From a bacterium (GTDB lineage Bacteria; JAMCPX01): a DNA stretch of 64,000 nucleotides. The position numbers were made by a program, and so were the translations under genes. The notes under the pieces are model-generated. The model was not told the origin of the DNA. It saw nothing but the letters and a program-made list of their open reading frames with translations, and ran no database searches. The DNA lies in the NCBI GenBank assembly GCA_037439545.1, contig JBBIVV010000001.1:35469-99468 (forward strand), read 5' to 3'. Positions 10,298-54,370 of this stretch are shown here, one piece after another. Each line of letters starts with the position of its first letter. The first letter of the stretch is position 1.

Positions 10298-10911
10298 TTC
10301 TTTTTGAATGCCTTTTCCTCGCCCCTGGAGAGCCGTTTTATGTTTTCACGGTGTGTGAATAAGATGAATGCCGTCATAAATACTGCAAACCCTGTCATAA
10401 TGCCCCGCACGGATGTACCATGAAATAAAATCAATGAGATGAACGGAAGGCTTATTGCTACCGTCAATGCACCGACAGACGAGACCCGTGTGATTAAAAA
10501 TGCGGCCAGCCATACGACTATCAAGAGTAAGGCAAATAAGGGACTTAGTGCCAGAAACATTCCAAGACTCGTTGCAATGCCTTTGCCGCCTTTGAATTTA
10601 AGGAATGGAGTGAATACATGTCCTGCTACGGCAAGTACACCGGTAACAGCCATAAATAAATAAAGCTGTATCTGAGGCAACTCCTTGAAATAAAGCTTTA
10701 TCAGGAGCACGGGTAAAAAGCCTTTCAGTGCATCTATGACAAGTACAAACGCGCCCCAGCCTTTTCCCATGGCACGTGTGACATTCGTTGCGCCAATATT
10801 ACCGCTTCCGACAGTTTTTATGTCTATACCCTTGGCTTTCGCAACAAGATAACCTGTCGGAAGTGAACCCATGAAAAACGCACCGATTAAAATAAGGATA
10901 TAAAGGATCAT
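10294..10911 (-). CDS. plsY: Glycerol-3-phosphate acyltransferase PlsY
   Basis: GSLPTGYLVAKAKGIDIKTVGSGNIGATNVTRAMGKGWGAFVLVIDALKG: canonical PlsY motifs; 205 aa polytopic. Confidence 0.85.
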   Translation of the reverse strand: MILYILILIGAFFMGSLPTGYLVAKAKGIDIKTVGSGNIGATNVTRAMGKGWGAFVLVIDALKGFLPVLLIKLYFKELPQIQLYLFMAVTGVLAVAGHVFTPFLKFKGGKGIATSLGMFLALSPLFALLLIVVWLAAFLITRVSSVGALTVAISLPFISLILFHGTSVRGIMTGFAVFMTAFILFTHRENIKRLSRGEEKAFKKK

Positions 10912-11041
10912 AAAGCATAAATAACAGCTATTATTCTATGCGTCAACTCTGACGGAGTTTATTTGCTCTCGAGGGTTAATCATGCTATAATAATTACATG
11001 ACAAGGTATCGACTATCTCTATTGTAAAGGAGGTTTATGCT

Positions 11042-11677
11042 ATGCCAACCAAATCCGCGCTGCAGGCTCTTTCGATTCTAAGGGATCCGTCCCAGTTCCA
11101 ATGGTATGTGGTGCCTCTGCTGATCATCGTGATTTACGTATACAATGCCGAGGTCGGGAAAAAGAACTGGAATCTGGTTTTTGCAGGGCTTGCCCTCTGG
11201 GGGATGGACTGGTTTAACGAGATCTGGAACGGACTTGTCTTTCATTTTACTGACTATGCTCCGGTCTGGGGGACGCCTGGGAAATCGGCATTTGTAATTT
11301 TAATAGGACTTAACATCGAGATCTGCTTCATGTTTGCGATCATGGGTATTGCTTCTGCCTATGCACTCCCTGCAGATAAAAAAATGAGGATACTCGGAAT
11401 ACCAAACCGTATTTTCTTTGCTGTGGTATACAGCATACTGAGCGTGATTGTAGAGCTTTTATTGAACCGTGCGGGTGCGCTGACCTGGGATTACTCATGG
11501 TGGAATGCGGGAGAGCCCTGGCTTATCTTTTTGATTGGATATCTGCCTTTCTTTGTAGTGGCTTTTTGGGTGCATGACATGGAAAAAGTCAGAAATAAGG
11601 TAATAGCGGTAGGCTCTATACTCGGCTTTGACCTTGCCTGTCTCGTTTTATTCGCCGGTGTCCTTAAGTGGATATAA
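11042..11677 (+). CDS. Hypothetical polytopic membrane protein
   Basis: SD AAGGAGG 7 nt upstream; about 6 predicted TM helices; no motif recognised. Confidence 0.4.
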   Translation: MPTKSALQALSILRDPSQFQWYVVPLLIIVIYVYNAEVGKKNWNLVFAGLALWGMDWFNEIWNGLVFHFTDYAPVWGTPGKSAFVILIGLNIEICFMFAIMGIASAYALPADKKMRILGIPNRIFFAVVYSILSVIVELLLNRAGALTWDYSWWNAGEPWLIFLIGYLPFFVVAFWVHDMEKVRNKVIAVGSILGFDLACLVLFAGVLKWI

Positions 11678-11712
11678 AGCCCGGTGAATGTTCTCAATTT
11701 TGGAGGCGGTAA

Positions 11713-12513
11713 ATGCTCGTTCGTAAAGAGAAACGAAAACTTGGCGAACTGCTTCAGGATGTCGATCTTCTGAATGAAGAACAGGTGAAGCAAGCACTGC
11801 GCGTGCAAAAAGAACAGGGAATAAAATTCGGCGATGCAGTCGTAAAACTCGGTTTTTTGAAAATAGACGACATTAACTGGGCATTATCGAATCAGTTAAA
11901 CATTCCCTATATACCGGACCTGAAGGAAAAGGGTATTTTTGACCCTGCGAGTGTAGCTCTATTACCTTATGATTTTGCACAGAAGCATTGTGTTATCATA
12001 CTGGGACAGATGTCCGGCACGGTAAATATTGTCATGGCTGATCCGTTAAACGACACGGTCATAGAATATGTGGCACATAGTACGGGTAAAAGCGTCAATG
12101 TTTCTATAAGCGATGAACAGGCGATACGGGATATGATTGAAGTACTTTACATGAACAGCGGTGTTGCCGCTGCAAGGCATCATGAAGAAGGCGATGTCTC
12201 ACAGATAAAAGCAGAGATTAATACTGTGCTTAAAGAGATAGGTTCCGGGTTCGACGCAGAGGTATATAAAAACGCACTATGTATTTCTTTCAATGAAAGA
12301 GCAAAAAAAAATGTCAGTATCCAACTCATATATAAGGACACTGAGACAGGTAAGTATTTCATAGACATCCTTATAGACAATTCTGTAGGCGTCTTATTTT
12401 CCAACAGGGACATAGAGGAACAGCATATAAATGCGCTGTTGAAACTCAGCAGGTTACAGGGGCTTATCGTCATAAAGATTACAGAGAACCTAACCTTAGA
12501 AGCATTGGAATAG
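11713..12513 (+). CDS. T2SSE_N / MshEN-like domain protein (putative c-di-GMP-binding), stand-alone
   Basis: N-terminus carries two tandem 24-residue motifs, LGELLQDVDLLNEEQVKQALRVQ and FGDAVVKLGFLKIDDINWALSNQ, matching the MshEN consensus (RLGxxLVxxGLITxxQLxxALxxQ, twice). Confidence 0.6.
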   Translation: MLVRKEKRKLGELLQDVDLLNEEQVKQALRVQKEQGIKFGDAVVKLGFLKIDDINWALSNQLNIPYIPDLKEKGIFDPASVALLPYDFAQKHCVIILGQMSGTVNIVMADPLNDTVIEYVAHSTGKSVNVSISDEQAIRDMIEVLYMNSGVAAARHHEEGDVSQIKAEINTVLKEIGSGFDAEVYKNALCISFNERAKKNVSIQLIYKDTETGKYFIDILIDNSVGVLFSNRDIEEQHINALLKLSRLQGLIVIKITENLTLEALE

Positions 12514-12517
12514 CGTT

Positions 12518-13723
12518 ATGGCAAAAATAGACGGATTATTAAAATTACTGAAGGATAAGAAGGGGTCTGATCTTCACCTCGCGGTCGGTTCTCCTCCGAC
12601 ACTGCGCATCCACGGTGAACTCGAGAAAATGGAAGCAAGGGAAATCACACAATCGGATATGGAAGTCCTATTGTTTGAAATAATGGACAATGATAAAAAG
12701 GATCAATTCCTGAAGAATAAAGAGTATGATTTTGCGTATGAAGTAAAAGATATTGCACGGTTCAGGGTAAACGCCTTTTACCAGAGAAAGGGACTTGCGG
12801 CTGTTTTGAGGCTCATCCCGGCAATAATACCTAAATTTGAAGATCTCGATATGCCTGAGGTGATGAAGACTTTTTGTTTCTATGATAGGGGACTTGTGCT
12901 GGTCACAGGACCGACCGGCAGCGGAAAATCAACGACGCTCGCTGCGCTCATTGATTTTATAAACAGGAACTCTTCAGCCCATGTCCTGACCCTGGAAGAC
13001 CCTATAGAATTTGTGCATCAAAATGTCTCGTGTCTCGTAAACCAGAGACAGATCGGAGAGCATAGCCATACATTTGCGTCTGCACTGCGTTCAGCCTTGA
13101 GGGAGGATCCGGACGTTATCCTTGTCGGTGAAATGAGGGACCTTGAGACAATATCTCTCGCAATTACGGCCGCAGAAACGGGGCACCTCGTCTTCGGTAC
13201 ACTCCATACATCGAGTGCGGCAAAAACCGTAGACAGAATAATAGACGCTTTTCCGAAGGATCAGCAGGAACAAATAAGGACAATGCTCTCAGAATCGCTC
13301 AAGGCTGTCGTTGCTCAACAGCTTATAAAAACGGTAGACGGAAAAGGCAGGGTTGCGGCATTGGAGATTATGGTCGTCACGCCTGCAATCTCAAACCTCA
13401 TAAGGGAAGCAAAGACATTCCAGATACCCTCCATTATTCAGATAGGCAAGAAAGACGGCATGCAGATAATGGATCAGGCAATACTGGATCTTCTAAAGCT
13501 TAAAAAAATATCGGCACATGAAGCATACGCACATGCCAATAACAAGTCCATGTTCGAACAATACATGGCGAAAGGTACCAATATTTACATGGCTTACGGT
13601 ATAGAAACGGGCGCACAGGAAGTAGCACCCAATAAAGATATTTCCGGTAAACTAAATAAAGACGCAAAATCTGCCAACAAGATTCAAGAAGCAAACATGC
13701 AGAAGGGCGTTACAAGCCGTTAA
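12518..13723 (+). CDS. pilT: Type IV pilus retraction ATPase PilT/PilU family (with about 50 aa C-terminal extension)
   Basis: MAKIDGLLKLLKDKKGSDLHLAVGSPPTLRIHGEL..., Walker A GPTGSGKSTT, Asp box and His box; 401 aa versus about 345 typical. Confidence 0.85.
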   Translation: MAKIDGLLKLLKDKKGSDLHLAVGSPPTLRIHGELEKMEAREITQSDMEVLLFEIMDNDKKDQFLKNKEYDFAYEVKDIARFRVNAFYQRKGLAAVLRLIPAIIPKFEDLDMPEVMKTFCFYDRGLVLVTGPTGSGKSTTLAALIDFINRNSSAHVLTLEDPIEFVHQNVSCLVNQRQIGEHSHTFASALRSALREDPDVILVGEMRDLETISLAITAAETGHLVFGTLHTSSAAKTVDRIIDAFPKDQQEQIRTMLSESLKAVVAQQLIKTVDGKGRVAALEIMVVTPAISNLIREAKTFQIPSIIQIGKKDGMQIMDQAILDLLKLKKISAHEAYAHANNKSMFEQYMAKGTNIYMAYGIETGAQEVAPNKDISGKLNKDAKSANKIQEANMQKGVTSR

Positions 13724-13823
13724 ATACAAACATTTCAACACTTTTTGTCTATTTTTAAACATCTCGATATACTTTGAATATTCTTAGTCCTTAATTTACA
13801 AATAGTTAAAACTATTTTTTCAT

Positions 13824-13839
13824 TGGCACGTATAATGCT
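13824..13839 (+). promoter_or_regulatory. Candidate sigma54 (-24/-12) promoter TGGCACG-N4-ATGC upstream of the PAS/HD-GYP gene
   Basis: cattGGCACGtataaTGCtat compared with consensus TGGCACG-N4-TTGCW; one mismatch in the -12 element; about 20 nt upstream of the ATG at 13858. Confidence 0.3.
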
Positions 13840-13857
13840 ATTAATTTTAATATTACT

Positions 13858-15018
13858 ATGCCTATTTATGATGATTATAAAAATGAAAATATGAATAATG
13901 TGGTAAACAGGGCGTACAAGTTTGAGTCTAATAAACTCCGGGACAATCAACGCGTGAAAACTGAGAACCAGAGATTGAAAGACAATATAAAAGTTCATGA
14001 AACAACAACTGAAGAAGAGCTGAAGAAAAAAGAGTCATATTTTCGCTCAATTATCGAAGATTCCCAGGATATCATTACCGTTTTGAACAATGACGGGACC
14101 ATCCAATATGAGAGTCCTGCCATAGAACAGGTGCTTGGCTATAAACAGCAAGAACTAATAGGGAAAAATGTATTCGAATTTATTCACCCTGATGAGAGAC
14201 AGAGAGTTATTGAAATCTTCATAGAAGGTATCAAAGAAGCCGGCCACACAGAGGTAATGGAGCTGCGCTTTAAACATAAAGACGACTCATGGCGTTTTCT
14301 TGAAGCCAAAGCCAAGAACCTGCTCGATAAAGATGAAGTAACGGGTATTGCCATCAGTTCCAGGGACATCTCAGAACGTAAGAATTACGAGGACGAATTG
14401 CGTAAAAGAAACCATGAACTTAATTTACTGCATGCAGACTTTGAAGAACTGTTTTTAGGGACTGTCAAAGTCTTGTCGAACGCACTCGATGCCAAATCAA
14501 AATGGACTGCCGGACATGCAGAGAGGGTCACGAAATATGCAGTCGCAATCGGGAAAGAAATGGGCCTTGAGGAAAAGTCATTGAAGGAACTTGAGATTGC
14601 AGGACTACTGCATGATATAGGAAAAATGGAGACCTATATAGACCTTCTTGACAAGAAGGGAGAACTTACTGTCGAAGAAATAGAATTGATTCGGCATCAT
14701 CCTGTCAAAGGCGCAGAAATACTTTCTCCTATAAAACAATTGAAGGATGTTATTCTTGCCGTAAAAAACCACCATGAGTTTTATGACGGCACAGGTTACC
14801 CCGATGGTTTAAAAGGAGTAGAAATACCGTTTTATGCAAGGATTCTGACAGTTGCAGATTCAGTCGATGCAATGTCTTCGGACAGACCTTACAGGAAAAG
14901 CAAGGCAAAGAATGAAATCATTGCCGAGTTGACCAGAGGATCGGGCAAACAGTTCGATCCTGAAATTGTTCAAGTTTTTTTACGGATCTACCCCGCGATT
15001 GGCTGGGACAATAAATAA
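13858..15018 (+). CDS. PAS domain / HD-GYP domain protein (putative c-di-GMP phosphodiesterase)
   Basis: PAS-like region (IITVLNNDGTIQYESPAIEQVLGYKQQELIGKNVFEFIHPDE) plus HD-GYP (LLHDIGKM ... HHEFYDGTGYPDGLKG). Confidence 0.8.
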   Translation: MPIYDDYKNENMNNVVNRAYKFESNKLRDNQRVKTENQRLKDNIKVHETTTEEELKKKESYFRSIIEDSQDIITVLNNDGTIQYESPAIEQVLGYKQQELIGKNVFEFIHPDERQRVIEIFIEGIKEAGHTEVMELRFKHKDDSWRFLEAKAKNLLDKDEVTGIAISSRDISERKNYEDELRKRNHELNLLHADFEELFLGTVKVLSNALDAKSKWTAGHAERVTKYAVAIGKEMGLEEKSLKELEIAGLLHDIGKMETYIDLLDKKGELTVEEIELIRHHPVKGAEILSPIKQLKDVILAVKNHHEFYDGTGYPDGLKGVEIPFYARILTVADSVDAMSSDRPYRKSKAKNEIIAELTRGSGKQFDPEIVQVFLRIYPAIGWDNK

Positions 15019-15038
15019 TGCATTCCTGTGATTAATTG

Positions 15039-15066
15039 TTGACATCAGTAAAATATTATTTATAAT
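15039..15066 (+). promoter_or_regulatory. Sigma70-type promoter TTGACA-N16-TATAAT upstream of the cytochrome c peroxidase gene
   Basis: TTGACA at 15039-15044, TATAAT at 15061-15066; GGAGG SD at 15115-15119. Confidence 0.5.
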
Positions 15067-15124
15067 CATTACAGAAAGAATTCGCACTGCAAACAGCCGT
15101 GTTACTTTTAAAATGGAGGTTTGT

Positions 15125-16204
15125 ATGAGGCATGTAAAATTGTTCATGTCGTTTATATTTTTGTTTATTCAGTCAGTTCTCATGATCAATGCGAATGCAG
15201 ATGGATTATCAGGTTCAGCTTTCACAACTATCAATATTCATTCCCTTGGCCCGCAAAGAATCGGTGATTTACGGTCTGTGCCGGTTCCTGTCGGCAATCC
15301 GCAATCGCCGATGAAGATTGTGCTTGGGAAACAGCTTTATTTTGATACGCGTCTGTCAAAGAACGACACGATAAGCTGTGCAACGTGTCATAGTCCGTTT
15401 ATGGGCTGGTCTGATGCAGGACCGACAAGTACAGGTATTCATGGTCAAAAAGGTCCTCGCAGGGCTCCACCTGTTTCAGATGCGGCTTACAGCTCTTTAC
15501 AGTTCTGGGACGGCAGGGCAGCAAGCCTTGAAGAGCAGGCAGAAGGTCCTATGCAGAACCCTGTGGAGATGGGCAATACGCTCGATAATGTAGTTAAGAC
15601 GCTGAACGGTATCCCCGGTTATGTAGAAGAATTCAAACAGGTGTTTGGAGAAACTCCTATCACTATAGAGCAGGTCGTTAAAGCCATAGCAGCATTCGAA
15701 CGTACTGTGGTGACAAGCGATTCCCCCTTTGACAGGTATGTCAAGGGTGATGATAACGCCCTTACGGATGACGAGAAAGAGGGTCTTGAGATCTTCAACG
15801 GTAAGGCGCATTGCACGGCATGCCATTGGGGCGGTTATTTCAGCGACGGAAGGTTCCATAACCTCGGTACTGCACAGACCGGCCCGTTAAAAGTGGATGA
15901 TGGAAGATATGCAATAACGCAAGATCAGGAAGATAGGGGCGCATTTAAGACGCCCACTATACGGGATGCTGTCAGACGCCCGCCTTATATGCACGATGGG
16001 TCCGAGAAGACGCTTGAAGAGGTAGTGGAGTTCTACAACAAGGGCGGTGGAGACGATCCGAATCTTGACCCATTGATTGTACCGCTTGGACTCTCAAATG
16101 AAGAGAAAAAAGATCTTGTCTTGTTTATGGAAGCGGCACTCATAAGCCTTAACCCCGGGGTTGCCGGAGTAACGCCTATTCCGCCGTCCGTATTGCCTAA
16201 ATAG
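15125..16204 (+). CDS. Di-haem cytochrome c peroxidase (CCP/MauG family)
   Basis: Two CxxCH motifs (CATCHSP and CTACHWGGYFSDGRFHN), signal peptide, about 360 aa; start moved to the second ATG (15125), preceded by GGAGG. Confidence 0.8.
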   Translation: MRHVKLFMSFIFLFIQSVLMINANADGLSGSAFTTINIHSLGPQRIGDLRSVPVPVGNPQSPMKIVLGKQLYFDTRLSKNDTISCATCHSPFMGWSDAGPTSTGIHGQKGPRRAPPVSDAAYSSLQFWDGRAASLEEQAEGPMQNPVEMGNTLDNVVKTLNGIPGYVEEFKQVFGETPITIEQVVKAIAAFERTVVTSDSPFDRYVKGDDNALTDDEKEGLEIFNGKAHCTACHWGGYFSDGRFHNLGTAQTGPLKVDDGRYAITQDQEDRGAFKTPTIRDAVRRPPYMHDGSEKTLEEVVEFYNKGGGDDPNLDPLIVPLGLSNEEKKDLVLFMEAALISLNPGVAGVTPIPPSVLPK

Positions 16205-16215
16205 AGGAGAACTCA

Positions 16216-17472
16216 ATGAAAAGAATTTATATTTTTATATTGATAATCTCTGCCATAACATTTTTTATGCCCGATAGAGCACACGCTATACCTGCTTTTG
16301 CAAGGAAATATGGATTTACCTGCACCATGTGTCATACTGCGTACCCGAAGCTCAATGACTTTGGACAGAGGTTCAGGGACAATGGCTATCAGATACCCGG
16401 GCAGGAGGGTTATGAAAAGAATGTTTTTGAAATAGCACCGCCAATATCTTTAAGAACCACGACAGGGTTGACCATCTATGATTCAAAGCAGGGAACAACG
16501 TCAGGTTTCAATATTTATGGTCTTGATCTGCTCGCCGCAGGAGTATTGCATAAAAACATATCGTTTTTACTCATCTATACTCCGAGGATTGACGAACCCG
16601 CGGCAGATTACACGGGTCCCCAGGGAACCAACCCATCACAGCTCGGTTCAATGGAATCGGCAAACATTGTGTTCAGCAATATCATCCATGACGCACTCAA
16701 TCTGAGGATAGGGAGATTTGAACCGGCTTATCAGGCAATCAGTTCGCACCGATCGTTCTATATTATGGAACCTTATGAGGTGTATACATTTACCACGCCT
16801 TCAAACAGCTTTGTATTTGCAGACAATCAAATGGGTGCCGAGGCTACGGGACATTTCAGGAGCGGATTTAAATACGCACTCGGTGTTGTTAATGGTAATG
16901 GCGGTAATCCTGATAACAACACCTATAAAGATGTTTATGCGAATCTGTTTCAGGTAATAGGAAAAGGCGATGGACAGAGTGCGGGTCAGAGAATAGGCGT
17001 GTTCGGTTATTACGGCTGGCAGCCTGCTGTTCTGCCGGGGCCTGCAGCTGCACCGACAGGTGAGACGAATGGCGGCGGCAACAAGCCTTTCTACAGGCTC
17101 GGTGCAGATTTAAGCTTTAATTGGTCTACATTAAATTTTGAGGTGTTATATATGGCAGGCGTTGATGATAAGGCGCTTAACACATTGGATCCTACGAAAG
17201 GCTATGTTTATTCAGGAGGGTTTGCAGAGCTTGATTGGGCATTGCTTACCAATAACGGTCTTATAGCCTCTATAATTTACAATTGGGTCATACCTCCGGA
17301 TTATGATAATGCCAGAACAGTCAACGCGTACTCGGTTCTTATGAGGTATTATCTTGGAGATTGGACAGCATACAACATCGCTTTACACGGCGAATATACC
17401 TACAGAGAAACGGGAAAGAACAGCCCACGAAGGGAAAATCTATTCACCGCATTAGTGGATTTTGCTTTCTGA
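16216..17472 (+). CDS. Putative Cyc2-like fused monohaem cytochrome-porin (outer-membrane beta-barrel with N-terminal CxxCH)
   Basis: Signal peptide, then a single CTMCH motif within about 15 residues of the predicted cleavage site (AIPAFARKYGFTCTMCHTAYPKLNDFGQRF); the remaining 370 aa are beta-rich, Gly/aromatic-rich and end in ...ALVDFAF (OMP C-terminal Phe). Confidence 0.45.
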   Translation: MKRIYIFILIISAITFFMPDRAHAIPAFARKYGFTCTMCHTAYPKLNDFGQRFRDNGYQIPGQEGYEKNVFEIAPPISLRTTTGLTIYDSKQGTTSGFNIYGLDLLAAGVLHKNISFLLIYTPRIDEPAADYTGPQGTNPSQLGSMESANIVFSNIIHDALNLRIGRFEPAYQAISSHRSFYIMEPYEVYTFTTPSNSFVFADNQMGAEATGHFRSGFKYALGVVNGNGGNPDNNTYKDVYANLFQVIGKGDGQSAGQRIGVFGYYGWQPAVLPGPAAAPTGETNGGGNKPFYRLGADLSFNWSTLNFEVLYMAGVDDKALNTLDPTKGYVYSGGFAELDWALLTNNGLIASIIYNWVIPPDYDNARTVNAYSVLMRYYLGDWTAYNIALHGEYTYRETGKNSPRRENLFTALVDFAF

Positions 17473-22521: not shown

Positions 22522-23886
22522 CTATTTTATCGTTGCGATAACACTCTGTGTTGCCGGAGAGATTACATAAATGGAATTGGTGAGTATGTCCGTGATGTAA
22601 GCCTGGTTCGTTATTTGATCCATAATGACATTTTCCGGAAACCCGATTCCCGTCAGTATCTTGATATTCTGAGCCGCTATCGTATTGAACGTGAACATAT
22701 CATTGTTGTTCAGCGCTGTTGTGCCCGGGTTTATATAAAATGATACCCCATCGTTTATACTGTCAAAAAATGTCCCGTTACGTGCAGGGTTTGCCTGCAG
22801 TCCTGAAACAGTCCCCGCGACAGTATAATTTTTTGCACCTGAATTATAAACGACTGTCCATATCTCGGATTGTGTCGTGCAATCATTGGTAATAATGGAT
22901 TGTATTGAGGATGCCAAGGAAGCAGGAATGGAGCTTGTGAGCCTAAGTCCCGTGAATGAGCTTGGTGTCAAAGGTATATTGCACCCGTGGTCGATATTCA
23001 AGAAATGTATGTATCCATTCGCATTGGCAACAATCCCGAGATATGAAAAATGATCGTCATCGAGCGCTACTCTCTGCGGTGTGATGGTGAAATCATAAGG
23101 TATGCCCGGCACAGTGAATTCATAACCCGTAATGCCGTTTTCTGTGTTTATAGATTCGAAGTTGTAGCCTGTAGAAGTATATACCATCGCATAAAGCATG
23201 GTATTCGCATACTGATTGACAATGCCGCCGATAACGGAAACGGGATAATCCGTAACAATCCTCTTAATCTCTATAAGGGTGTACGGATCCAACACGGATA
23301 TGAACGGCTGATCATTAGATGAAACAAACAGTTCACGGTTGTCAGGCCCTGTTATCATCGATGACGGAGTAAACGTTAAACTGGTGAATGTCGACGGCGT
23401 TATGACATTGCTGACGGTAAATGATTCGAGATAAAAATTGTCATTCTGTGCATCAAGGACGAATAGCGTCGAAGTCTGGGGAATGAGCAGTGTTTTCAGC
23501 GGATAGCCTCTCAGATATATGGTGCTCGTCGTCTGGTTTGTCAGAAGGTTCAATGATTCAAGCAAACCCGCAGCTTGCGTGAATCCCGCAACATAGAGAT
23601 AACTGTCGTTATATGCGAGTGATTTTGGATACATATTCATCTGCAGCGCATGGGTTCCTGCCGGGGTCGTAATCGGCATGACGCTGTTTGTCGCTGTGTT
23701 TATTTCCGATATGGTACCGGTAAATGTGTTTGCGACAAAGAGTGTTCTTGTATTCGATAAAGGCAGATAACCGAGGGTCATTGCAGACGGATAGGTAAAG
23801 TTGGTTTGGGTCGATGATGTCGAACTGCATGCAGAAACCATGAGCAGGAGAATAAAAGACAGGGATGCCTGAATAATCTTTTTCAT
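22522..23886 (-). CDS. YVTN-family beta-propeller repeat lipoprotein
   Basis: Lipobox LLLMVSAC; repeated YVTN/NHL-like units (QAYITDILTNSIYVISPAT...); C-terminus similar to its upstream paralogue; start overlaps the upstream stop (ATGA). Confidence 0.5.
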   Translation of the reverse strand: MKKIIQASLSFILLLMVSACSSTSSTQTNFTYPSAMTLGYLPLSNTRTLFVANTFTGTISEINTATNSVMPITTPAGTHALQMNMYPKSLAYNDSYLYVAGFTQAAGLLESLNLLTNQTTSTIYLRGYPLKTLLIPQTSTLFVLDAQNDNFYLESFTVSNVITPSTFTSLTFTPSSMITGPDNRELFVSSNDQPFISVLDPYTLIEIKRIVTDYPVSVIGGIVNQYANTMLYAMVYTSTGYNFESINTENGITGYEFTVPGIPYDFTITPQRVALDDDHFSYLGIVANANGYIHFLNIDHGCNIPLTPSSFTGLRLTSSIPASLASSIQSIITNDCTTQSEIWTVVYNSGAKNYTVAGTVSGLQANPARNGTFFDSINDGVSFYINPGTTALNNNDMFTFNTIAAQNIKILTGIGFPENVIMDQITNQAYITDILTNSIYVISPATQSVIATIK

Positions 23887-27933: not shown

Positions 27934-29613
27934 ATGCAACAACATAAACTTTTAATAGTTACGTGGCTGTCGGATATTACGAACAGCATTCATCAGATAC
28001 TGAAAAACAACGAATATGTGTTTGACAGCGCTTCTACCCCGATTGAGGCTATGAATGCAATCGGGAAATATGCCTATAAGGTCATAGTGATTGACAGCTT
28101 ATTGCCGGGAGTGAATGGTTATCAATTGGTGAAACGTCTCAGGAATACACCTCATGCGGAAAATACAAAATTCATTGTTTTCATGAACAATTTACCTCAC
28201 GACAAACATGAAGATGTGAGCAAACGCTGGGGTATATATGCTTTGTTGAAGAAACCTGTGAAATCCGATGAAATGATGCTCATACTGAAGAAAGCAGAGG
28301 CTTATGACCTGCCAAGCGAAAAATTAGAGATGCATTCTTCTGAATCAACCGAGGCAATGCTGGCAGAGCTTGCCAGTGTTCTATGGACTGGCAAAACGAC
28401 ATGTTATGGCAAGGGCGGTATTATAAAGGAGATTTACTGGGACAGCGGTAATCCTGTTTTTGCAATAAGTAATGATGAGGACGAAAGACTTGATAAATGG
28501 CTTTTAAAAACACAGCAAGTGACTGAGGGCGTACTTAAATCAGCCTATGATATAATGAATAAAAGAGGCAAAAGGCTTGGCGATGCACTTATAATGCTTG
28601 GAGCCATTAGTGAGGACAACCTTGAGACGGCTATTTCCGATAACATGAAAGCGGTCATTATGGATCTGTTTTCATGGGATGGGGTAGAGTATACAAAAGA
28701 AGAAAAGGTAACAGGTATAAAAGAGCTGACCTCAATAAAAGATTCCCTGCCCGTAATGCTTTTTGAAGGTGTAAAAAGAAGAACTGACATGGAACGTATA
28801 AAGAAGAAGTTAGAATCAGAGGGTGGAATCGTGAGCTTTATGCCCGATAACATATTTAATATCGAAGATTTCAAATTTCCGCATTCGTATAACAGGATAA
28901 TGAACCTTATTAATGGCAAGAGAACGATATACGAGCTGATCGCTAAAAGCGGTGTGGCTCAGGACGATGCATATAGATTTATTTATATTTTATTCCTTTT
29001 AAAGTTTATAAAGCTTGGAGCTCCAGCCAACGAAGATAAGGACGGCCTTGGCAACATGCCGAAGATACAGGCAGATCCGAACAGGAAAACCAGATTTACA
29101 GGTAGTCTCAATGACATATCGATAATAGAACTTATTCAAATGCTCGAGTTCAACAGAAAATCCGGTGCACTTCAGATCAATGATGCAAATGAGATTGGCT
29201 GGCTTTTGTTCAATAAGGGAAGGATTACAGATGCATATTATGGAGATCTCACGAGACAGAATGCGGTGTACAGAATATTGTTCCTTACAGAAGGAGAATT
29301 TGAGATAAAATTTAAAGATATCGTGGGTGATCCGAGAATAGACATAGATACCCAAACGTTATTGATGGAAGGATTACGCCTGCTTGATGAAATCAAAAGG
29401 ATCGAACCTACATTCGGTAGTCTCAAAAAGCGGTTTATGATAAATTCATCTCACCGGTTCAATGCAGAAGAAGAAAAGGAAGAACTTTCGCGCATATTCA
29501 ATGGCAAGAATGATATGTTGACATCTGCATTTATGCTGAATCCGGATCCGCAGATAGGCTTTGACATTATGAACACGCTGTTAAAAAATAATGTAATCGA
29601 GGAAGGAAAATGA
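27934..29613 (+). CDS. Atypical receiver-domain protein with two repeat modules I recall as DUF4388-like (family name uncertain)
   Basis: N-terminal CheY-like fold (KVIVIDSLLPGVNG, ALLKKP) but the acidic pair is degenerate (LIVTWLSD); two repeats of a roughly 90-aa module (LAELASVLWTGKTTCYGKGGIIKEIYWDSGNPVFA... and ISIIELIQMLEFNRKSGALQINDANEIGWLLFNKGRITDAYYG...). Confidence 0.45.
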   Translation: MQQHKLLIVTWLSDITNSIHQILKNNEYVFDSASTPIEAMNAIGKYAYKVIVIDSLLPGVNGYQLVKRLRNTPHAENTKFIVFMNNLPHDKHEDVSKRWGIYALLKKPVKSDEMMLILKKAEAYDLPSEKLEMHSSESTEAMLAELASVLWTGKTTCYGKGGIIKEIYWDSGNPVFAISNDEDERLDKWLLKTQQVTEGVLKSAYDIMNKRGKRLGDALIMLGAISEDNLETAISDNMKAVIMDLFSWDGVEYTKEEKVTGIKELTSIKDSLPVMLFEGVKRRTDMERIKKKLESEGGIVSFMPDNIFNIEDFKFPHSYNRIMNLINGKRTIYELIAKSGVAQDDAYRFIYILFLLKFIKLGAPANEDKDGLGNMPKIQADPNRKTRFTGSLNDISIIELIQMLEFNRKSGALQINDANEIGWLLFNKGRITDAYYGDLTRQNAVYRILFLTEGEFEIKFKDIVGDPRIDIDTQTLLMEGLRLLDEIKRIEPTFGSLKKRFMINSSHRFNAEEEKEELSRIFNGKNDMLTSAFMLNPDPQIGFDIMNTLLKNNVIEEGK

Positions 29614-30212
29614 AAATTCTCTGTGACAAATGCGGCAATGAATTTGTAATCAAAGAAAACAATATAAGAAAACAATCCTATACAATGAGATGCCCTGTGT
29701 GTAAAAACCCCATCAATGTCAAGAGGGCAGAAGCACACGATAGTATATATGGTAAGGGTGAAAAAGCCGGTTCAACGGCAATCCAGCATCCGGCAGCCGT
29801 ATCGGTAACTACAGATATTTTACATGAGAAGACAACGGAAAACCGTGCAGCGAACCGTATAGCAGAAAGAAATAATCTTATCGCACAACAAGACATGCTT
29901 AAACAGATTGAAAATGGTTCGGATAGTATCGTGGAGGCATCTGAAAGTTTTATCGACGATGAAGGGATCGAAAGCTCTATGGAATCACGCAGAAAGGAGG
30001 ATGTCCGGCACTGGTTAATTCAGCTTGTCGATGGCATGGATGTCCCTTTTCTTGCAAGAAAATATATACCGTATATTTACTATACAATGGCGACAGTTAC
30101 TGTTTTTACCATACTATTTTTCTTTGACGATTTCATTAAGCTTCATGGCATAACACGCGGCGTTTTATCGATGTTTATACAGGCGTTCCATGATTTAAAA
30201 CACTATATATAA
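29610..30212 (+). CDS. Zinc-ribbon domain protein with C-terminal transmembrane segment
   Basis: MKILCDKCGNEFVIKENNIRKQSYTMRCPVCKNPINV (CxxC...CxxC zinc ribbon), acidic linker, C-terminal hydrophobic helix; start overlaps the upstream stop (ATGA). Confidence 0.4.
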   Translation: MKILCDKCGNEFVIKENNIRKQSYTMRCPVCKNPINVKRAEAHDSIYGKGEKAGSTAIQHPAAVSVTTDILHEKTTENRAANRIAERNNLIAQQDMLKQIENGSDSIVEASESFIDDEGIESSMESRRKEDVRHWLIQLVDGMDVPFLARKYIPYIYYTMATVTVFTILFFFDDFIKLHGITRGVLSMFIQAFHDLKHYI

Positions 30213-31832: not shown

Positions 31833-32324
31833 ATGGCTTCTGAAAATGCAGAAGACTTTTTTGAACAGGCTCTTAAATTAATAAAAGCAGGTAAGAGTCG
31901 TGAAGCCTTTGAATTACTGAAGAAGCTTGTCGAAAATGCGCCATCTTCTATTTATGAGATAGAGGCCAGGTACCTGTCGTATTATGGTTATCTGACAGGT
32001 ATGGTTGCTCACAACTATCAACGCGGTATCGAGCTGTGTAATGAGGCTATAAAAAGAGAATTCTTCCATCCTGATTTTTATCTCAACCTCGGAAGGCTGC
32101 ATCTGGCCATTAACAATAAGGGTATGGCTGTAAAGACCTTTTATAAAGGTTTGAGGATTGATAGAACGAATAAGGGACTCATAGAAGAAATAAAAAAATT
32201 GGGTGTAAGAAAGAAACCCATTTTTTCGTTCCTGGGCAGGGAGCATCCTGTCAACAAGCTCGTCGGTAAAATCAGGACATCATTCCACGGATTAATAAGG
32301 GGGAAAAATGGCCGGAAACAATGA
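31833..32324 (+). CDS. Hypothetical helical (TPR-like) protein
   Basis: 163 aa, helical repeat-like (EAFELLKKLVENAPSS...YYGYLTGM...ELCNEAIK...YLNLGRLHLAIN); first gene of a tightly coupled five-gene operon. Confidence 0.35.
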   Translation: MASENAEDFFEQALKLIKAGKSREAFELLKKLVENAPSSIYEIEARYLSYYGYLTGMVAHNYQRGIELCNEAIKREFFHPDFYLNLGRLHLAINNKGMAVKTFYKGLRIDRTNKGLIEEIKKLGVRKKPIFSFLGREHPVNKLVGKIRTSFHGLIRGKNGRKQ

Positions 32325-34392
32325 TCACACGAGGAATATCGCAATTATAGGTATTGGTGCAAGCGGAAAAACGCAGCTCGCAGATACTTTTCTCTTCAAT
32401 GCAAAAGCAGTTCCAGGCATAGGGAAAGTAATAGATAAAACATCCAACATGGTCCTTGAGCAGGAGGAATTTGAGCATCTTACAACCATTACTGCCTCTC
32501 TCGCTACTGTTGAAATCAACGGAATAAAATTCAATTTTATCGATACGCCGAGTCAGGACGGATTTATTGCTGAAACGATCAATTCTCTCCAGTCTGTTGA
32601 CGGTGCAATCTTTTTAATGAGTGCACAAACCGATATAAAGCAGGAGGCAGAAACACTCATGAAGTATACGGCAGCATTTCATCTGCCGGTCATCTTTCTT
32701 ATAAACAAGATGGATGGCGAAAATGCGGATTTTTACAACGCACTGCATGAATACGGCACGTACCTGAATATCAAACTTACGCCTGTTGCCCTGCCAATCG
32801 GGAGCGGTGAGAAGTTCGAAGGTATTTATAATATCATTGATAAGAAAACATATCTTTATCCAAAAGATGCTTCCGGTCATCCGAAACAGGTTGCAGGCAA
32901 CATACCTGAAGATGTTGAGGAATTTGAGAAGGGATTGTTCGAGACTGCTGCTGAAAACGACGATGCCCTGCTCGAGAGGTACCTGAACAATGAAAAATTA
33001 AAGGTTGAAGAAATAATCGAACCTATAAAAAAGGCGGTCTCATCCAGAAACATGTTCCCGGTCATGCCTGGTTCCGCGCTGCTTAACATTGGTATGGACA
33101 AATTGACCGAGTTCTGTTTTTCATGGCTCCCTGCTCACCACGAAGTAAATGGGAAAACAATTCTAAAACCCTCCCATGGAGACGGGGCCATTGAGGTCAA
33201 GCGCACTGCATCGGAAAAGCCGGTTCTTTTTATATTTAAGACGACGATAGATCCTTATTCCGGTAAGATGAGCTATGCAAGGATTCTTGCCGGCAGGATA
33301 AATCAGGATACAGTCGTTTATAATGCCTCAACAGGGGCGGAAGAGAAAACAAACCATATTTACACCATGATAGGGAAGAAGAGCAAACTTATCAATGCGG
33401 CAGAGTGCGGCGACATTGTTGCGCTCGCAAAGCTGCAGGCAACCAGGACAGGAGATACGCTGAAAGCAATAAAGGATGCATTTGCTGTTCCGCAGTTATA
33501 CAGGCCGAAAAAACTTGTTTCGTATGCGGTTAAACCCAAGGGTAAGAGCGATGAGGAAAAGGTTACACAGACACTGAACAAAATCCTCGAGGAGGACACA
33601 TCGCTATCACTCAGGAGGGATGCTCAGTTAAAGGAATTGATACTTGAGGGTGTGTCTAAAGAACAGCTTGAAATTGTTATGCATAAAGCGAGGAGGAAAT
33701 ACGGCATAGATTTAGAGTTGGTCTTGCCGGACATCCCATACAAAGAGACCATAAAAGGAAGAGCAGAGGCACAGGGTAAGTATAAAAAACAATCAGGGGG
33801 CAGGGGGCAGTATGGTGATGTATGGATAAAGCTTGAACCGCTTGCAAGGGGAAGAGGTGTTGAATTTATAGACAAAATAGTCGGAGGTGCTATACCAAGA
33901 CAGTATATACCTGCAGTAGAAAAGGGGATAAGGGACGCAACGACGGAAGGTTTCCTTGCAGGTTTCCCGGTTGTAGATTTTGCTGCAACTGCGTATGATG
34001 GATCATATCATGATGTTGATTCATCCGAACTTGCATTTAAGATTGCAGGTTCGTTTGCTTTTAAAAAGTGTATGGAGAGTGCAATCCCTGTAATACTTGA
34101 ACCTATAATGTTAATTACTGTAACAGTGCCGGAGGCCTTTACCGGAGAGGTTATAGGCGGGCTTAATTCTAAAAGGGCAAAGATACTCGGTATGGCTCAG
34201 GATGAGAATAAGAAGCAGGTGATAAAGGCACATGTGCCTTTATCAGAGGTTCAAATGTATGGAGATGAATTGCGTTCCATAACAAAGGGGATGGGGACTT
34301 TTGATATCGAATACTTCGGCTATGAGGAGGTTCCTTCGCATATAGCTGAAAAGATTATTGGCAGTAAAAATAAAAAAGAAGTAAAGGTATAG
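32308..34392 (+). CDS. EF-G-family translational GTPase paralogue with degenerate G3 motif
   Basis: G1 GIGASGKT, switch-I-like EHLTTITAS, G3 position reads IDTPSQDGF (canonical DTPGHVDF), G4 NKMD, G5 GSAL; C-terminal EF-G domain IV/V signature (QSGGRGQYGDVWIKLEPL...FAFKKCME); 694 aa. Confidence 0.7.
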   Translation: MAGNNDHTRNIAIIGIGASGKTQLADTFLFNAKAVPGIGKVIDKTSNMVLEQEEFEHLTTITASLATVEINGIKFNFIDTPSQDGFIAETINSLQSVDGAIFLMSAQTDIKQEAETLMKYTAAFHLPVIFLINKMDGENADFYNALHEYGTYLNIKLTPVALPIGSGEKFEGIYNIIDKKTYLYPKDASGHPKQVAGNIPEDVEEFEKGLFETAAENDDALLERYLNNEKLKVEEIIEPIKKAVSSRNMFPVMPGSALLNIGMDKLTEFCFSWLPAHHEVNGKTILKPSHGDGAIEVKRTASEKPVLFIFKTTIDPYSGKMSYARILAGRINQDTVVYNASTGAEEKTNHIYTMIGKKSKLINAAECGDIVALAKLQATRTGDTLKAIKDAFAVPQLYRPKKLVSYAVKPKGKSDEEKVTQTLNKILEEDTSLSLRRDAQLKELILEGVSKEQLEIVMHKARRKYGIDLELVLPDIPYKETIKGRAEAQGKYKKQSGGRGQYGDVWIKLEPLARGRGVEFIDKIVGGAIPRQYIPAVEKGIRDATTEGFLAGFPVVDFAATAYDGSYHDVDSSELAFKIAGSFAFKKCMESAIPVILEPIMLITVTVPEAFTGEVIGGLNSKRAKILGMAQDENKKQVIKAHVPLSEVQMYGDELRSITKGMGTFDIEYFGYEEVPSHIAEKIIGSKNKKEVKV

Positions 34393-34393
34393 T

Positions 34394-35539
34394 ATGGATA
34401 AAAAAGACAAAGAAACAAAAAAAACAATAGCAGATGAGCTGTTGGAAGATAATTTCTTTAAGCCTCCCATGGATGATGTGATTGATGATGAGGTGCCGGA
34501 AAAACATGGTGTTTCGGATGCAGGAGAGGAAGGACCTGAAAAAAGTGACAGCAGTCTTCTCTTTGATGAGTTTCTTAAATCGCCCGTTGAAATATCACCT
34601 GAAGAAACTTCTGAATTAACGATAGAGGAAAGGCCTGTTATCCCTCAGACTCGGGAGGCAATTCCCGACATACATCCCACGGTATCTGCATCCCGGTCTG
34701 CAGCAGTTCTAAAGACTGCAGGACCTTCCGGAAGCAAGATGAAGTTGATAATAGCATCTCTCGGAGGCGGTGCGGTCCTTTTATTAGCAGTTGCCGGATA
34801 TTTTTATTTAGGTCATAAATCCACTGATACGACCCGGAGCACTGCCGTAACAGGCTCACAAACTATTGTCATGACTCATGAAACACCGCCTTCCGGAGTA
34901 CAGCCTCCTGAAGTTACCCGTGAGAGCGCCAAACCTGCACCATTGCCTGACGGCAATCATGAAAACAACCCGACGGTCAAGGAACAGACACCGCATCAGC
35001 CAGGTCAGCAGGTAGCTGAGAATGTTCCTCCTGTTCAAACGTCTCAGCCTGCCCAGACAATCCAGGAAGCGTCAAAACAGTTTGAAGTTGCACTCGAGAA
35101 GATCAAGACAAAAGCAGCATTGGACAGGGTAAAACGGATTGGAGCTTCAATAGATAAATCATTAAATTTCGATATCAAGGAAAATACGGCGAACAATACC
35201 CTGTATAACCTTTATGTCGATAAAATATATTCCTCGGAAGGCGAGGCTACAGCGGACAATCTTAAACTTATGGTAGCCAATATATCGAACGCTTCGGTTA
35301 TTAAGGCTGATGGAGGATACCGGATACTTATAGGTAAATACAACTCAAGAGGACCCGCCGATACTGATATGAAGAATATAGAATCAGCAGGACTTAAAGG
35401 GGTAATAAAAGAAGCTACCAGTAAAGTTTCAACCTATAATATAAGAGTTTTTCCTTTCAAATCATCGAAAGATGCCAAAGAGTATATTTCGAAAGTGAGA
35501 AAATTAGCGTTCAAGGCAAGCTTTTCAGAAATAAAATAA
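34394..35539 (+). CDS. Membrane-anchored protein with acidic N-terminus, Pro/Gln-rich linker and C-terminal SPOR-like repeat(s)
   Basis: TM segment LIIASLGGGAVLLLAVAGYFYL; low-complexity PPEV/QPGQQ region; C-terminus GGYRILIGKYNSRGPADTDMKNIESAGLKGVIKE and TYNIRVFPFKSSKDAKEYISKV resemble SPOR (RNP-like peptidoglycan-binding) motifs. Confidence 0.45.
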   Translation: MDKKDKETKKTIADELLEDNFFKPPMDDVIDDEVPEKHGVSDAGEEGPEKSDSSLLFDEFLKSPVEISPEETSELTIEERPVIPQTREAIPDIHPTVSASRSAAVLKTAGPSGSKMKLIIASLGGGAVLLLAVAGYFYLGHKSTDTTRSTAVTGSQTIVMTHETPPSGVQPPEVTRESAKPAPLPDGNHENNPTVKEQTPHQPGQQVAENVPPVQTSQPAQTIQEASKQFEVALEKIKTKAALDRVKRIGASIDKSLNFDIKENTANNTLYNLYVDKIYSSEGEATADNLKLMVANISNASVIKADGGYRILIGKYNSRGPADTDMKNIESAGLKGVIKEATSKVSTYNIRVFPFKSSKDAKEYISKVRKLAFKASFSEIK

Positions 35540-35540
35540 T

Positions 35541-36743
35541 ATGTTTGAGAATCTATCGGATAATGCAAAACTTTATTTAAAAGAATCAGTGCCGGCGCAG
35601 CTCGTGTCTGCTGTTGTAAGGGGCTTGGTGCCGCTTGAGCCGAAGGAACTGCTGATAGTGATTGCCTATCATTATGTGAATGGTAACGATCAGATAAAAG
35701 CTGATGCAGTAAATACCCTTAAATCTCTTCCATCCAACATTATCGACACCGTGGTCGGAGGCGATGTGCCTGATTTTGTCCTTGGATTCATATATCACAA
35801 CAGCACACTATCACAGACTGCCGTTTATCCTTTTATAACAAACAAGAATCTTTCGGATGACATGTTTATAGAACTTGCGCGCAGCGATAATGAAGCAATT
35901 CTTGAACTTATTGCAAAGAACCAGATGAGGATCCTGAAGAATGACAAGATATTCGATACAATCATTACGAATCCACATTTACCGAAGATATTGAGGGACC
36001 AACTCATGGAGTTTTTTGCGACCTTGGCAAGTAAACAGCTGAGGAAGCTCAATATTAAAATAGAAAAAAAAGATGTCCGGCAGCCTGATAAAACAAAAGA
36101 CCTTCCTTCATCTGTAATCAATCCTGCAGGTTTGCCCTCTGATCTAAAATCATCTGATCTTCCTTCTGACATGCAGGGGCAGGGACTCCCTTCAAATGTT
36201 GCCATGCTTCCTTCAAACGTACTTTCAGGCTTACCGTCCGATGCGCTCGATAACCTGCCGGTCAACCTTATGATGGAAGGGCTTCCGTCAGAATTAATAC
36301 AGGATGAAGCCGTTCAGATCGAAGATGAAGGTGTCAAATTGACACTTTTTCAACATATACAAAAGATGACTGTTTCCCAGAAGATAAAGCTTGCTTTGCT
36401 CGGAAATAAAGAGGCCCGCACGATACTTTTCAGAGACTCCAACAGGATCGTTATTGAGTCGGTCATGAAGAGTCCCCGCATAACTGACGGTGAAATACTT
36501 GGTATCGCAAATTCACGGAGTGTAAGCGAAGACATTGTCAGGATAATTGCCGCGAACAGAGAATGGCAGAAAAATTACAGAGTTCGCCAGGCACTTGCCG
36601 GCAATCCGAAAACTCCTGTGCCCATTGCGTTGAAATTGCTTGAAACTATATCAAAACAGGATTTAAAGAGTCTCAGTAACAGCAAAAATATTTCTTCGGT
36701 TATTGCTACGACAGCAAAACGAATGATAGGAGATGTGAAATAA
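35541..36743 (+). CDS. Hypothetical repeat protein (helical HEAT/ARM-like ends, central degenerate GLPS(D/N/E) repeats)
   Basis: Central run LPSDLKSSDLPSDMQGQGLPSNVAMLPSNVLSGLPSDALDNLPVNLMMEGLPSEL; C-terminal helical repeats (ALAGNPKTPVPIALKLLE). Start ATG overlaps the upstream stop; its stop overlaps the mglA-like start (TAATG). Confidence 0.35.
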   Translation: MFENLSDNAKLYLKESVPAQLVSAVVRGLVPLEPKELLIVIAYHYVNGNDQIKADAVNTLKSLPSNIIDTVVGGDVPDFVLGFIYHNSTLSQTAVYPFITNKNLSDDMFIELARSDNEAILELIAKNQMRILKNDKIFDTIITNPHLPKILRDQLMEFFATLASKQLRKLNIKIEKKDVRQPDKTKDLPSSVINPAGLPSDLKSSDLPSDMQGQGLPSNVAMLPSNVLSGLPSDALDNLPVNLMMEGLPSELIQDEAVQIEDEGVKLTLFQHIQKMTVSQKIKLALLGNKEARTILFRDSNRIVIESVMKSPRITDGEILGIANSRSVSEDIVRIIAANREWQKNYRVRQALAGNPKTPVPIALKLLETISKQDLKSLSNSKNISSVIATTAKRMIGDVK

Positions 36744-54368: not shown

Positions 54369-54370
54369 CT

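Follow-up and report, generated by a model that had tools for sequence, protein, structure and literature searches.

Control of type IV pili (T4P) by cyclic di-GMP (c-di-GMP) is known to target the assembly ATPase, by way of the MshEN domain of MshE and PilB themselves or by way of FimX and PilZ. The regulation of the retraction ATPase PilT is, to our knowledge, little understood, and a c-di-GMP receptor encoded together with PilT would represent a direct second-messenger input on retraction. In Geobacter sulfurreducens, pilT3 (GSU0436) is located downstream of the pilB-like gene "mshE" (GSU0435), and this arrangement is conserved in Geobacter (PMC5065972). In that study, Speers et al. 2016, mshE was treated as an ATPase, and Geobacter PilT3 was found to rescue both the retraction and the twitching of a pilT mutant of P. 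aeruginosa. Here, we describe a related gene pair in a bacterial DNA stretch of 64,000 nt (assembly GCA_037439545.1, contig JBBIVV010000001.1, positions 35,469 to 99,468 of the forward strand), which is called the window below. Its first gene encodes a protein of 266 amino acids, P1, which contains an MshEN domain, lacks an ATPase domain and is followed after 4 nt by pilT. We propose, with a probability of about 0.6, that P1 senses c-di-GMP and serves this PilT as an accessory subunit.

The locus had been singled out in a prediction made from the sequence alone. This original prediction described a stand-alone MshEN domain, a PilT with an unusual C-terminal tail and an HD-GYP phosphodiesterase, which were taken to form a split, c-di-GMP-gated retraction module with a local degrading enzyme. 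The three open reading frames (ORFs) that it named are present, and direct reading places the TAG stop codon of P1 at 12511-12513 and the ATG of pilT at 12518, separated by CGTT. The features of the locus are the following:

11702-11706, plus strand: Shine-Dalgarno motif GGAGG, read from the sequence, 6 nt 5' of the gene 1 ATG
11713-12513, plus strand: gene 1 (P1), ORF of 266 amino acids with three domains, MshEN protein without ATPase
11737-11895, plus strand: MshEN_N of P1, residues 9-61, two 24-residue motifs, predicted four-helix bundle
11941-12156, plus strand: MshEN_C / T2SSE_N1 alpha/beta subdomain of P1, residues 77-148
12190-12510, plus strand: C-terminal PD-(D/E)XK (GxxExxY-type) fold of P1, residues 160-266
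12514-12517, plus strand: spacer of 4 nt between P1 and pilT, CGTT, read from the sequence
12518-13723, plus strand: pilT (gene 2), ORF of 401 amino acids, PilT-family retraction ATPase
13580-13720, plus strand: C-terminal extension of PilT, residues 355-401, clade-specific, from the alignment of ortholog C-termini
13858-15018, plus strand: PAS-HD-GYP gene (gene 3), ORF of 386 amino acids, putative phosphodiesterase

The N-terminal part of P1 was assigned to the MshEN family by several independent models. The NCBIfam model NF053729 (c-di-GMP_motif) matched P1 with 43 bits (cut-off 38, E 2.8e-11), and the T2SSE_N1 part of Pfam PF05157 matched residues 77-148 with E 3.5e-12. The P1 family profile aligned with the N-domain of V. 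cholerae MshE (VcMshE, PDB 5HTL) with E 2.5e-19, residues 1-139 on 1-138. The register is identical, so the residue numbering of P1 equals that of the structural paper. The two 24-residue motifs that had been predicted are real, each beginning one residue earlier than proposed: motif 1 comprises K9-Q32 and motif 2 comprises K38-Q61, and they are separated by the 5-residue spacer KEQGI. The motifs were scored with the relaxed search pattern of Wang et al. 2016 (PMC5013675), which has 11 constrained positions, and motif 2 agreed with the pattern at all 11.

The ligand-contact positions of VcMshE were taken from the same publication. For motif 1, VcMshE and P1 compare as R9/K9, L10/L10, G11/G11, L25/V25, L29/L29 and Q32/Q32, and for motif 2 as R38/K38, L39/F39, G40/G40, L54/I54, L58/L58 and Q61/Q61. 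Both motifs of P1 thus contain Gly3, Gln24 and a basic residue at position 1, which are the essential positions in MshE and PilF (PMC5013675, PMC12002112); Gly3, Gln24 and the basic position 1 of motif 2 were shown by experiment to be indispensable in PilF GSPII domains (PMC12002112). In 12 of 12 P1 family members, G11, Q32, G40 and Q61 are invariant, while positions 9 and 38 are occupied by K or R. P1 is therefore predicted to bind c-di-GMP via its MshEN domain.

An ATPase domain of the T2SSE type was not found in P1 in the Pfam and NCBIfam scans. The assembly ATPase model TIGR02538 reached 46.7 bits (cut-off 675) and covered the N-terminus only, so that P1 does not qualify as an assembly ATPase. 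In the AlphaFold2 model of P1 (pLDDT 76.7), a four-helix bundle (residues 10-62) is followed by an alpha/beta subdomain (86-148), a disordered linker (150-158) and a compact domain with the order alpha-alpha-beta-beta-beta-alpha-beta-beta (162-265). One further MshEN_N-like 24-residue motif was noticed elsewhere in the window: a response regulator of 559 amino acids (27934-29613, plus strand) with REC and DUF4388 (PATAN-like) domains contains the single motif RLGDALIMLGAISEDNLETAISDN at about residues 213-236, apparently half a c-di-GMP site, and is followed by a zinc-ribbon protein (29610-30212).

The C-terminal domain shows that P1 is more than the stand-alone MshEN domain initially proposed; the protein comprises MshEN_N, MshEN_C and, as a third domain that had been missed, a degenerate PD-(D/E)XK fold. 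PF13366 (PDDEXK_3) and TIGR04256 (GxxExxY) matched residues 163-227, each above its cut-off, and the domain of residues 162-265 in the model is consistent with these matches. A PDB sequence search gave no match for the C-terminal domain, and its placement required a fold search. For a comparison of the catalytic residues, the P1 family (13 sequences) was aligned with three proteins that plasmid records annotate as GxxExxY. The helix Glu of the family is replaced by A182 in P1 and by A, P, T, I or K in its relatives, and is thus lost in 13 of 13 sequences. Likewise, all 13 have L-F-S (L228-F-S230 in P1) in place of the beta-3 ExK. P1 retains D218, the Asp of beta-2, and the acidic D222 four positions further on, and the former nuclease pocket keeps the invariant residues Y185, K186, N187, Y215, D218 and D222. 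Owing to the loss of the helix Glu and the ExK, the domain is predicted to be catalytically degenerate and inactive as a nuclease.

Gene 2 encodes, as judged from its matches and motifs, a true PilT-family ATPase. TIGR01420 matched residues 4-343 with 486.8 bits (cut-off 319), and the closest PDB entry was P. aeruginosa PilT, 3JVU (E 1e-108). The Walker A motif (GPTGSGKST), the Walker B motif (DVILVGEMRD) and the His box (GHLVFGTLHT) are intact, and AISNLIRE is present in place of the PilT-specific AIRNLIRE. The protein is 57-65% identical to authentic retraction ATPases. The PilTs that are linked to P1 form a tight clade of nine clusters with 79-87% identity, and the next-best matches do not exceed 68%.

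The gene order of P1 and pilT is strongly conserved, in agreement with the pairing that had been predicted. A PilT ortholog (76-87% identity) starts 4-15 nt after P1 in 10 of 10 genome loci, and pilT is also directly downstream in both further metagenome loci. Even the distant P1 relative P0016, which is 35% identical to P1, is directly followed by pilT. In every locus examined, the gene that directly follows P1 thus encodes a PilT that is intact by sequence. Given the spacer of 4 nt, translational coupling of P1 and pilT is likely.

The C-terminal tail of PilT had been noted as unusual, and it is indeed present, with about 47 amino acids (residues 355-401; ordinary PilTs have 352-367 amino acids in total). 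It contains the motif NIYMAYGIETGAQE(L/V)(S/A)P(K/N)KD, after which the sequence is variable and rich in Lys. The alignment of the C-termini revealed that the tail is specific for the clade rather than a fixed feature, as it occurs in 9 of 11 orthologs and is missing in L001 and L009. A link between the tail and P1 was considered and dropped: co-variation gave no support, and the two PilT orthologs without tail still have a P1 with all pocket residues.

A search of 5.8 billion proteins yielded 12 P1 clusters with 50-96% identity, all of about 266 amino acids and with one architecture. When 1.84 billion representatives were searched with a profile, P0016 was found in addition; it has the same three domains. 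The dN/dS ratios versus orthologs were 0.06-0.14, with constraint in each domain and dS near saturation. By these measures, P1 is a real gene under purifying selection. The order pilB-pilT is a common ancestral one, exemplified by pilB-pilT4 of Geobacter, and P1 occupies the position of pilB, so that it might be viewed as a decaying, functionless pilB remnant in a leftover gene order. We give this view almost no credence: length and domains are conserved in the 12 clusters and P0016, selection acts on every domain, the C-terminal domain has a different fold and is not an ATPase fragment, and a strong Shine-Dalgarno motif is combined with tight spacing to pilT. A disrupted pilB, of which the original prediction had seen no ATPase remnant, was excluded at the level of sequence by the length and architecture conserved in 13 clusters, the dN/dS values and the lack of an ATPase remnant.

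The MshEN domain of P1 led to a group of PilB-like proteins that have lost their ATPase motifs. Motif 2 of P1 contains Trp56 in DDINWAL (residues 52-58), which fits the pattern [DE][DE]hxWAh. This signature occurred in 52 of the 150 best profile hits; a Walker A motif was present in none of these 52, of which 35 were PilB-like proteins of about 500-560 amino acids. In 12 of 12 sampled database proteins the Walker A motif, the Walker B Glu and the His box were all destroyed when compared with intact PilB ATPase domains, and in a metagenome scan Walker A, Walker B and His box were degenerate in 18 of 18 complete ORFs of about 550 amino acids. One Nitrospirota locus encodes a PilB-like protein in which the same three motifs are destroyed.

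These proteins share the genomic position of P1. For the adjacency count, MshEN ORFs without Walker A, with a complete 3' end and with at least 300 nt of downstream sequence were used. In 22 of 24 cases, an intact pilT came next on the same strand, mostly no more than about 15 nt away, and the two remaining ORFs were truncated. The downstream PilTs were 55-86% identical to the PilT of the window. The sole intact PilB of the metagenome scan had no adjacent pilT. Other forms without ATPase that precede pilT are an MshEN protein of 196 amino acids, another of 411 amino acids, and REC-MshEN-X proteins. Genes for dead "PilB/MshE" proteins of about 550 amino acids were seen directly upstream of an intact pilT at the loci L018, L020, L021, L024-L044 and L057.

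The MshEN domain of P1 is 34-41% identical to this pseudo-PilB clade versus 31-32% to intact (MshEN)4-PilB. P1 has the Trp signature and the position upstream of pilT in common with the clade, and lacks its T2SSE-homologous body of about 550 amino acids. Thus, the "split" of an active PilB that had been envisaged does not describe P1, because its MshEN domain belongs to a PilB-like clade in which the ATPase was already dead. A likely history is that the catalysis-dead PilB-like member of a PilB-like/pilT pair later had its dead ATPase body replaced by a nuclease fold that is dead as well. In the clade of about 550 amino acids, position 1 of motif 1 is S, T or A and not R/K, and position 3 is sometimes Cys; ligand binding is therefore less certain there than in P1.

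Relatives carry the labels "bacterium" or "Deltaproteobacteria bacterium", and the nearest PilB-like and pseudo-PilB matches come from Nitrospirota. Dead members occur in metagenome-assembled genomes of Nitrospirota and in the cultured Trichlorobacter (Geobacter) lovleyi, under the annotation of assembly ATPases. The T. lovleyi protein WP_265551959.1, "pilus assembly protein PilB", has three degenerate ATPase motifs and is followed, 18 nt on, by a PilT of 356 amino acids that is 61% identical to the PilT of the window. GSU0435 of G. sulfurreducens is only 26% identical to PilB (PMC8557921), and the Geobacter mshE-pilT3 pair probably belongs to the dead-ATPase clade. Many genes annotated as "PilB" or "MshE" beside pilT are ATPase-dead, which may explain the mshE-pilT3 pair and the non-canonical phenotype of Geobacter pilT3. 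The annotations should be read with caution: dead genes are labelled assembly ATPases, and P1 itself is labelled "GxxExxY protein". Owing to this wider pattern, the model can be tested in cultured Geobacter and Trichlorobacter.

Tentatively, and at somewhat less than even odds, P1 may be the minimal form of a widespread and hitherto unrecognised class of PilT partners, which would be PilB-derived, ATPase-dead proteins with an MshEN or REC-MshEN N-terminus as sensor that attach to retraction ATPases of the PilT3 type and make retraction depend on c-di-GMP. If so, an MshEN head combined with an oligomerisation or docking module would suffice.

Gene 3, as predicted, encodes an HD-GYP enzyme, which has a PAS domain (residues 57-181) and an HD_5 (HD-GYP) domain (204-370; Pfam and NCBIfam; PF13487 with 133 bits). 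LLHDIGK and HHEFYDGTGYP are intact and align with the active enzymes 4MCW (PmGH) and 5Z7C (V-cGAP3). In 6 of 9 independent P1 lineages, HD-GYP or GGDEF genes adjoin P1-pilT at a distance of up to about 3 kb, and at least four arrangements occur: a PAS-HD-GYP gene downstream on the same strand (this window), a REC-HD-GYP gene upstream on the same strand, a GAF-GGDEF gene upstream together with a REC-HD-GYP gene downstream on the opposite strand, and an HD-GYP gene upstream on the opposite strand. In the remaining three lineages, no c-di-GMP enzyme was found within the sequence available. The HD-GYP genes of related loci are not orthologous to gene 3 (about 33% identity, REC instead of PAS), which argues for repeated recruitment and not for inheritance. 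The proposed local degrading enzyme is therefore a recurrent neighbour and no fixed part of the locus.

The lack of orthology, the varying position and strand, and the three lineages without a c-di-GMP enzyme could also mean that the HD-GYP gene is a chance neighbour outside the module, and the gap of 134 nt with promoter-like hexamers between pilT and gene 3 would fit this. We consider it rather unlikely, though a possibility to be taken seriously, as turnover genes were found near P1 in so many independent lineages and arrangements, and as an MshEN protein unrelated to P1 directly precedes a PAS-HD-GYP gene as well. In the latter case (L017, 151-1937), an ATPase-less MshEN protein of 210 amino acids overlaps the start of the PAS-HD-GYP gene, which, from the gene arrangement, is a second kind of pairing of an MshEN protein with a c-di-GMP phosphodiesterase. 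In the region 10800-15300 of the window, promoter and terminator scans gave a number of sites not above that of shuffled sequence.

In the mechanism that we propose, P1 and PilT would be made together and would bind each other. Binding of c-di-GMP to the four-helix bundle would change the engagement of P1 with PilT or with the pilus base, and this nucleotide-dependent engagement would permit or prevent pilus retraction by PilT. The dead nuclease domain might act as a module for oligomerisation or docking, in place of the ancestral dead ATPase ring. The neighbouring PAS-HD-GYP protein, or REC-HD-GYP or GAF-GGDEF proteins in relatives, would tune the nucleotide pool that P1 reads. The direction of the effect can be suggested with low confidence only: because high c-di-GMP favours extended pili in Vibrio, nucleotide-bound P1 might, by analogy, restrain PilT so that pili stay out for attachment, and HD-GYP activity might release PilT.

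Several points count against a c-di-GMP-sensing PilT subunit. With respect to the ligand, motif 1 agrees with 9 of the 11 relaxed-pattern positions, Q15 and D18 being the deviating residues, and position 1 is Lys instead of Arg in both motifs, which is a conservative change. The work on PilF GSPII-A shows that even a perfect consensus is no guarantee of binding (PMC12002112), so that c-di-GMP binding by P1 stays a prediction. The closest solved relative of gene 3 is a cGAMP-specific enzyme, and thus the nucleotide sensed could differ from c-di-GMP; MshEN binds cGAMP too, more weakly than c-di-GMP (PMC5013675). The three P1 lineages without a c-di-GMP enzyme nearby belong here as well. With respect to the pilus, deletion of pilT3 in Geobacter delayed attachment and did not cause hyperpiliation, and mshE and pilT3 of G. 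sulfurreducens were judged unlikely to be co-transcribed (PMC5065972). Furthermore, no pilB, pilC or pilin genes that would tie the pair to a particular pilus system were found in the 64-kb window.

The deviations of motif 1 at two relaxed positions and the Lys for Arg at position 1 would fit a P1 that is a ligand-blind structural adaptor or decoy, like XpsE and PilF GSPII-A, and that either still partners PilT or vies with PilB for access to the base of the pilus. The residues at positions 1 and 3 of motif 1 in the pseudo-PilBs of about 550 amino acids, and the finding that the consensus alone is insufficient for binding (PMC12002112), point in the same direction. However, Gly3, Gln24 and the basic position 1 are kept in both motifs of P1 and are invariant or conservatively varied throughout the family, NF053729 scored above its cut-off, and c-di-GMP turnover genes were recruited several times independently. 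A ligand-blind P1 is thus considered unlikely.

The window without pilus structural genes would also be compatible with a P1-PilT pair that acts outside T4P retraction, be it on nucleic acids, with DNA being taken up or processed, or as part of a secretion apparatus of another type. The PD-(D/E)XK domain of P1 keeps D218, D222, K186, Y185 and Y215 invariant, so its pocket may bind something, and a non-T4P role was raised by Speers et al. for Geobacter PilT3 (PMC5065972). Nonetheless, no member of the family has kept the helix Glu or the ExK, and PADLOC gave no defence-system match for P1 and only P-loop/HD noise for the other two proteins. In addition, the similarity of PilT to authentic retraction ATPases, its AIRNLIRE-type motif, and the restoration of P. 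aeruginosa retraction and twitching by Geobacter PilT3, which is part of the same type of gene pair (PMC5065972), argue for a role in retraction. We regard a function outside T4P as quite improbable, and retain the c-di-GMP-sensing PilT subunit as the preferred interpretation.

The surroundings of the locus are those of an ordinary chromosome. The window contains genes for pyruvate carboxylase subunits, plsY, yidC, mreBCD and others, and the base composition is uniform over the P1-pilT-HD-GYP region. An Rfam scan of the whole window had zero matches, and thus there is no c-di-GMP riboswitch in it. Just upstream of P1, a membrane protein of 211 amino acids is encoded (11042-11677, plus strand), and related genomes contain an ortholog of it with 75% identity (L002, 3267-3902). 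In L002 this ortholog is 4 kb farther from P1, with thiC, a Yip1 protein, an ORF of 70 amino acids and a GAF-GGDEF cyclase in between; this block of the related genomes is missing from the window. Downstream of gene 3, the stretch 15113-17472 (plus strand) encodes a di-haem cytochrome c peroxidase (15113-16204) and, after it, a protein of 418 amino acids without Pfam match, in which a haem-binding motif of the CxxCH type (CTMCH) is located close to the N-terminus.

Further features were noted at a greater distance. A small Ras-like GTPase of 297 amino acids (36743-37636, plus strand) is possibly MglA-like and may bear on polarity or motility; upstream of it are an EF-G-family gene (32308-34392) and genes for a SPOR-domain protein and a protein of 400 amino acids without Pfam match (34394-36743). 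A DnaJ-TPR protein (376 amino acids) followed by a short Hsp70 (525 amino acids), seemingly without the C-terminal lid, forms an atypical chaperone pair (53238-55948, plus strand). Three ORFs had no Pfam match at E <= 1e-5: 22522-23886 (minus strand, 454 amino acids), 43817-44776 (minus strand, 319 amino acids) and 45568-47592 (plus strand, 674 amino acids).

Compared with the known systems, P1 shares with the MshEN domains of MshE, PilB and PilF (5HTL, 8PDK) the fold of two subdomains, the pair of 24-residue motifs, which flank a spacer of 5 residues and align without a shift in register, and the conserved Gly3, Gln24 and basic position 1. In contrast to these proteins, P1 has no fused T2SSE ATPase and is encoded with the antagonistic retraction ATPase, has Lys for Arg at position 1, and carries the clade-specific Trp56 signature. 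The GSU0435-pilT3 pair and the T. lovleyi pair resemble P1-pilT in that a PilB-like MshEN gene with the Trp56 signature is directly upstream of pilT; the absence of working ATPase motifs is demonstrated for the T. lovleyi member. The proteins of these two pairs have about 550 amino acids with a degenerate ATPase body, whereas P1 has 266 amino acids and a dead PD-(D/E)XK domain in that place.

P. aeruginosa PA3740, MshEN-REC and FrgA (Wang et al. 2016, PMC5013675) are, like P1, MshEN proteins without ATPase, that is, of the free c-di-GMP receptor type, and PA3740 influences swarming. The supplementary architecture tables of Wang et al. 2016 contain no fusion of MshEN with PDDEXK_3/GxxExxY and no linkage to pilT. 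The FimX/PilZ-PilB systems of Xanthomonas and Pseudomonas are similar to the function proposed for P1, since a separate c-di-GMP receptor acts in trans on a T4P motor. However, their receptors are degenerate EAL and PilZ proteins and the target is the assembly ATPase PilB, while the proposed target of P1 is PilT. The C-terminal domain of P1 shares its fold with the GxxExxY/PDDEXK_3 proteins (TIGR04256, PF13366), resembles them recognisably in sequence, and has kept both the Asp of beta-2 and the acidic position +4. It differs from them by the loss of the eponymous Glu and the ExK, and by its fusion to MshEN, whereas GxxExxY proteins are free proteins of about 125 amino acids. Full-text literature searches returned no paper on MshEN together with GxxExxY, on stand-alone MshEN together with PilT, or on a pseudo-ATPase PilB. 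The pairing of an ATPase-dead PilB-like sensor with PilT, as recognized here by sequence, is broader than P1 and apparently undescribed, and the combination of MshEN with a predicted dead PD-(D/E)XK domain, tied to PilT, is a new architecture in a known receptor family.

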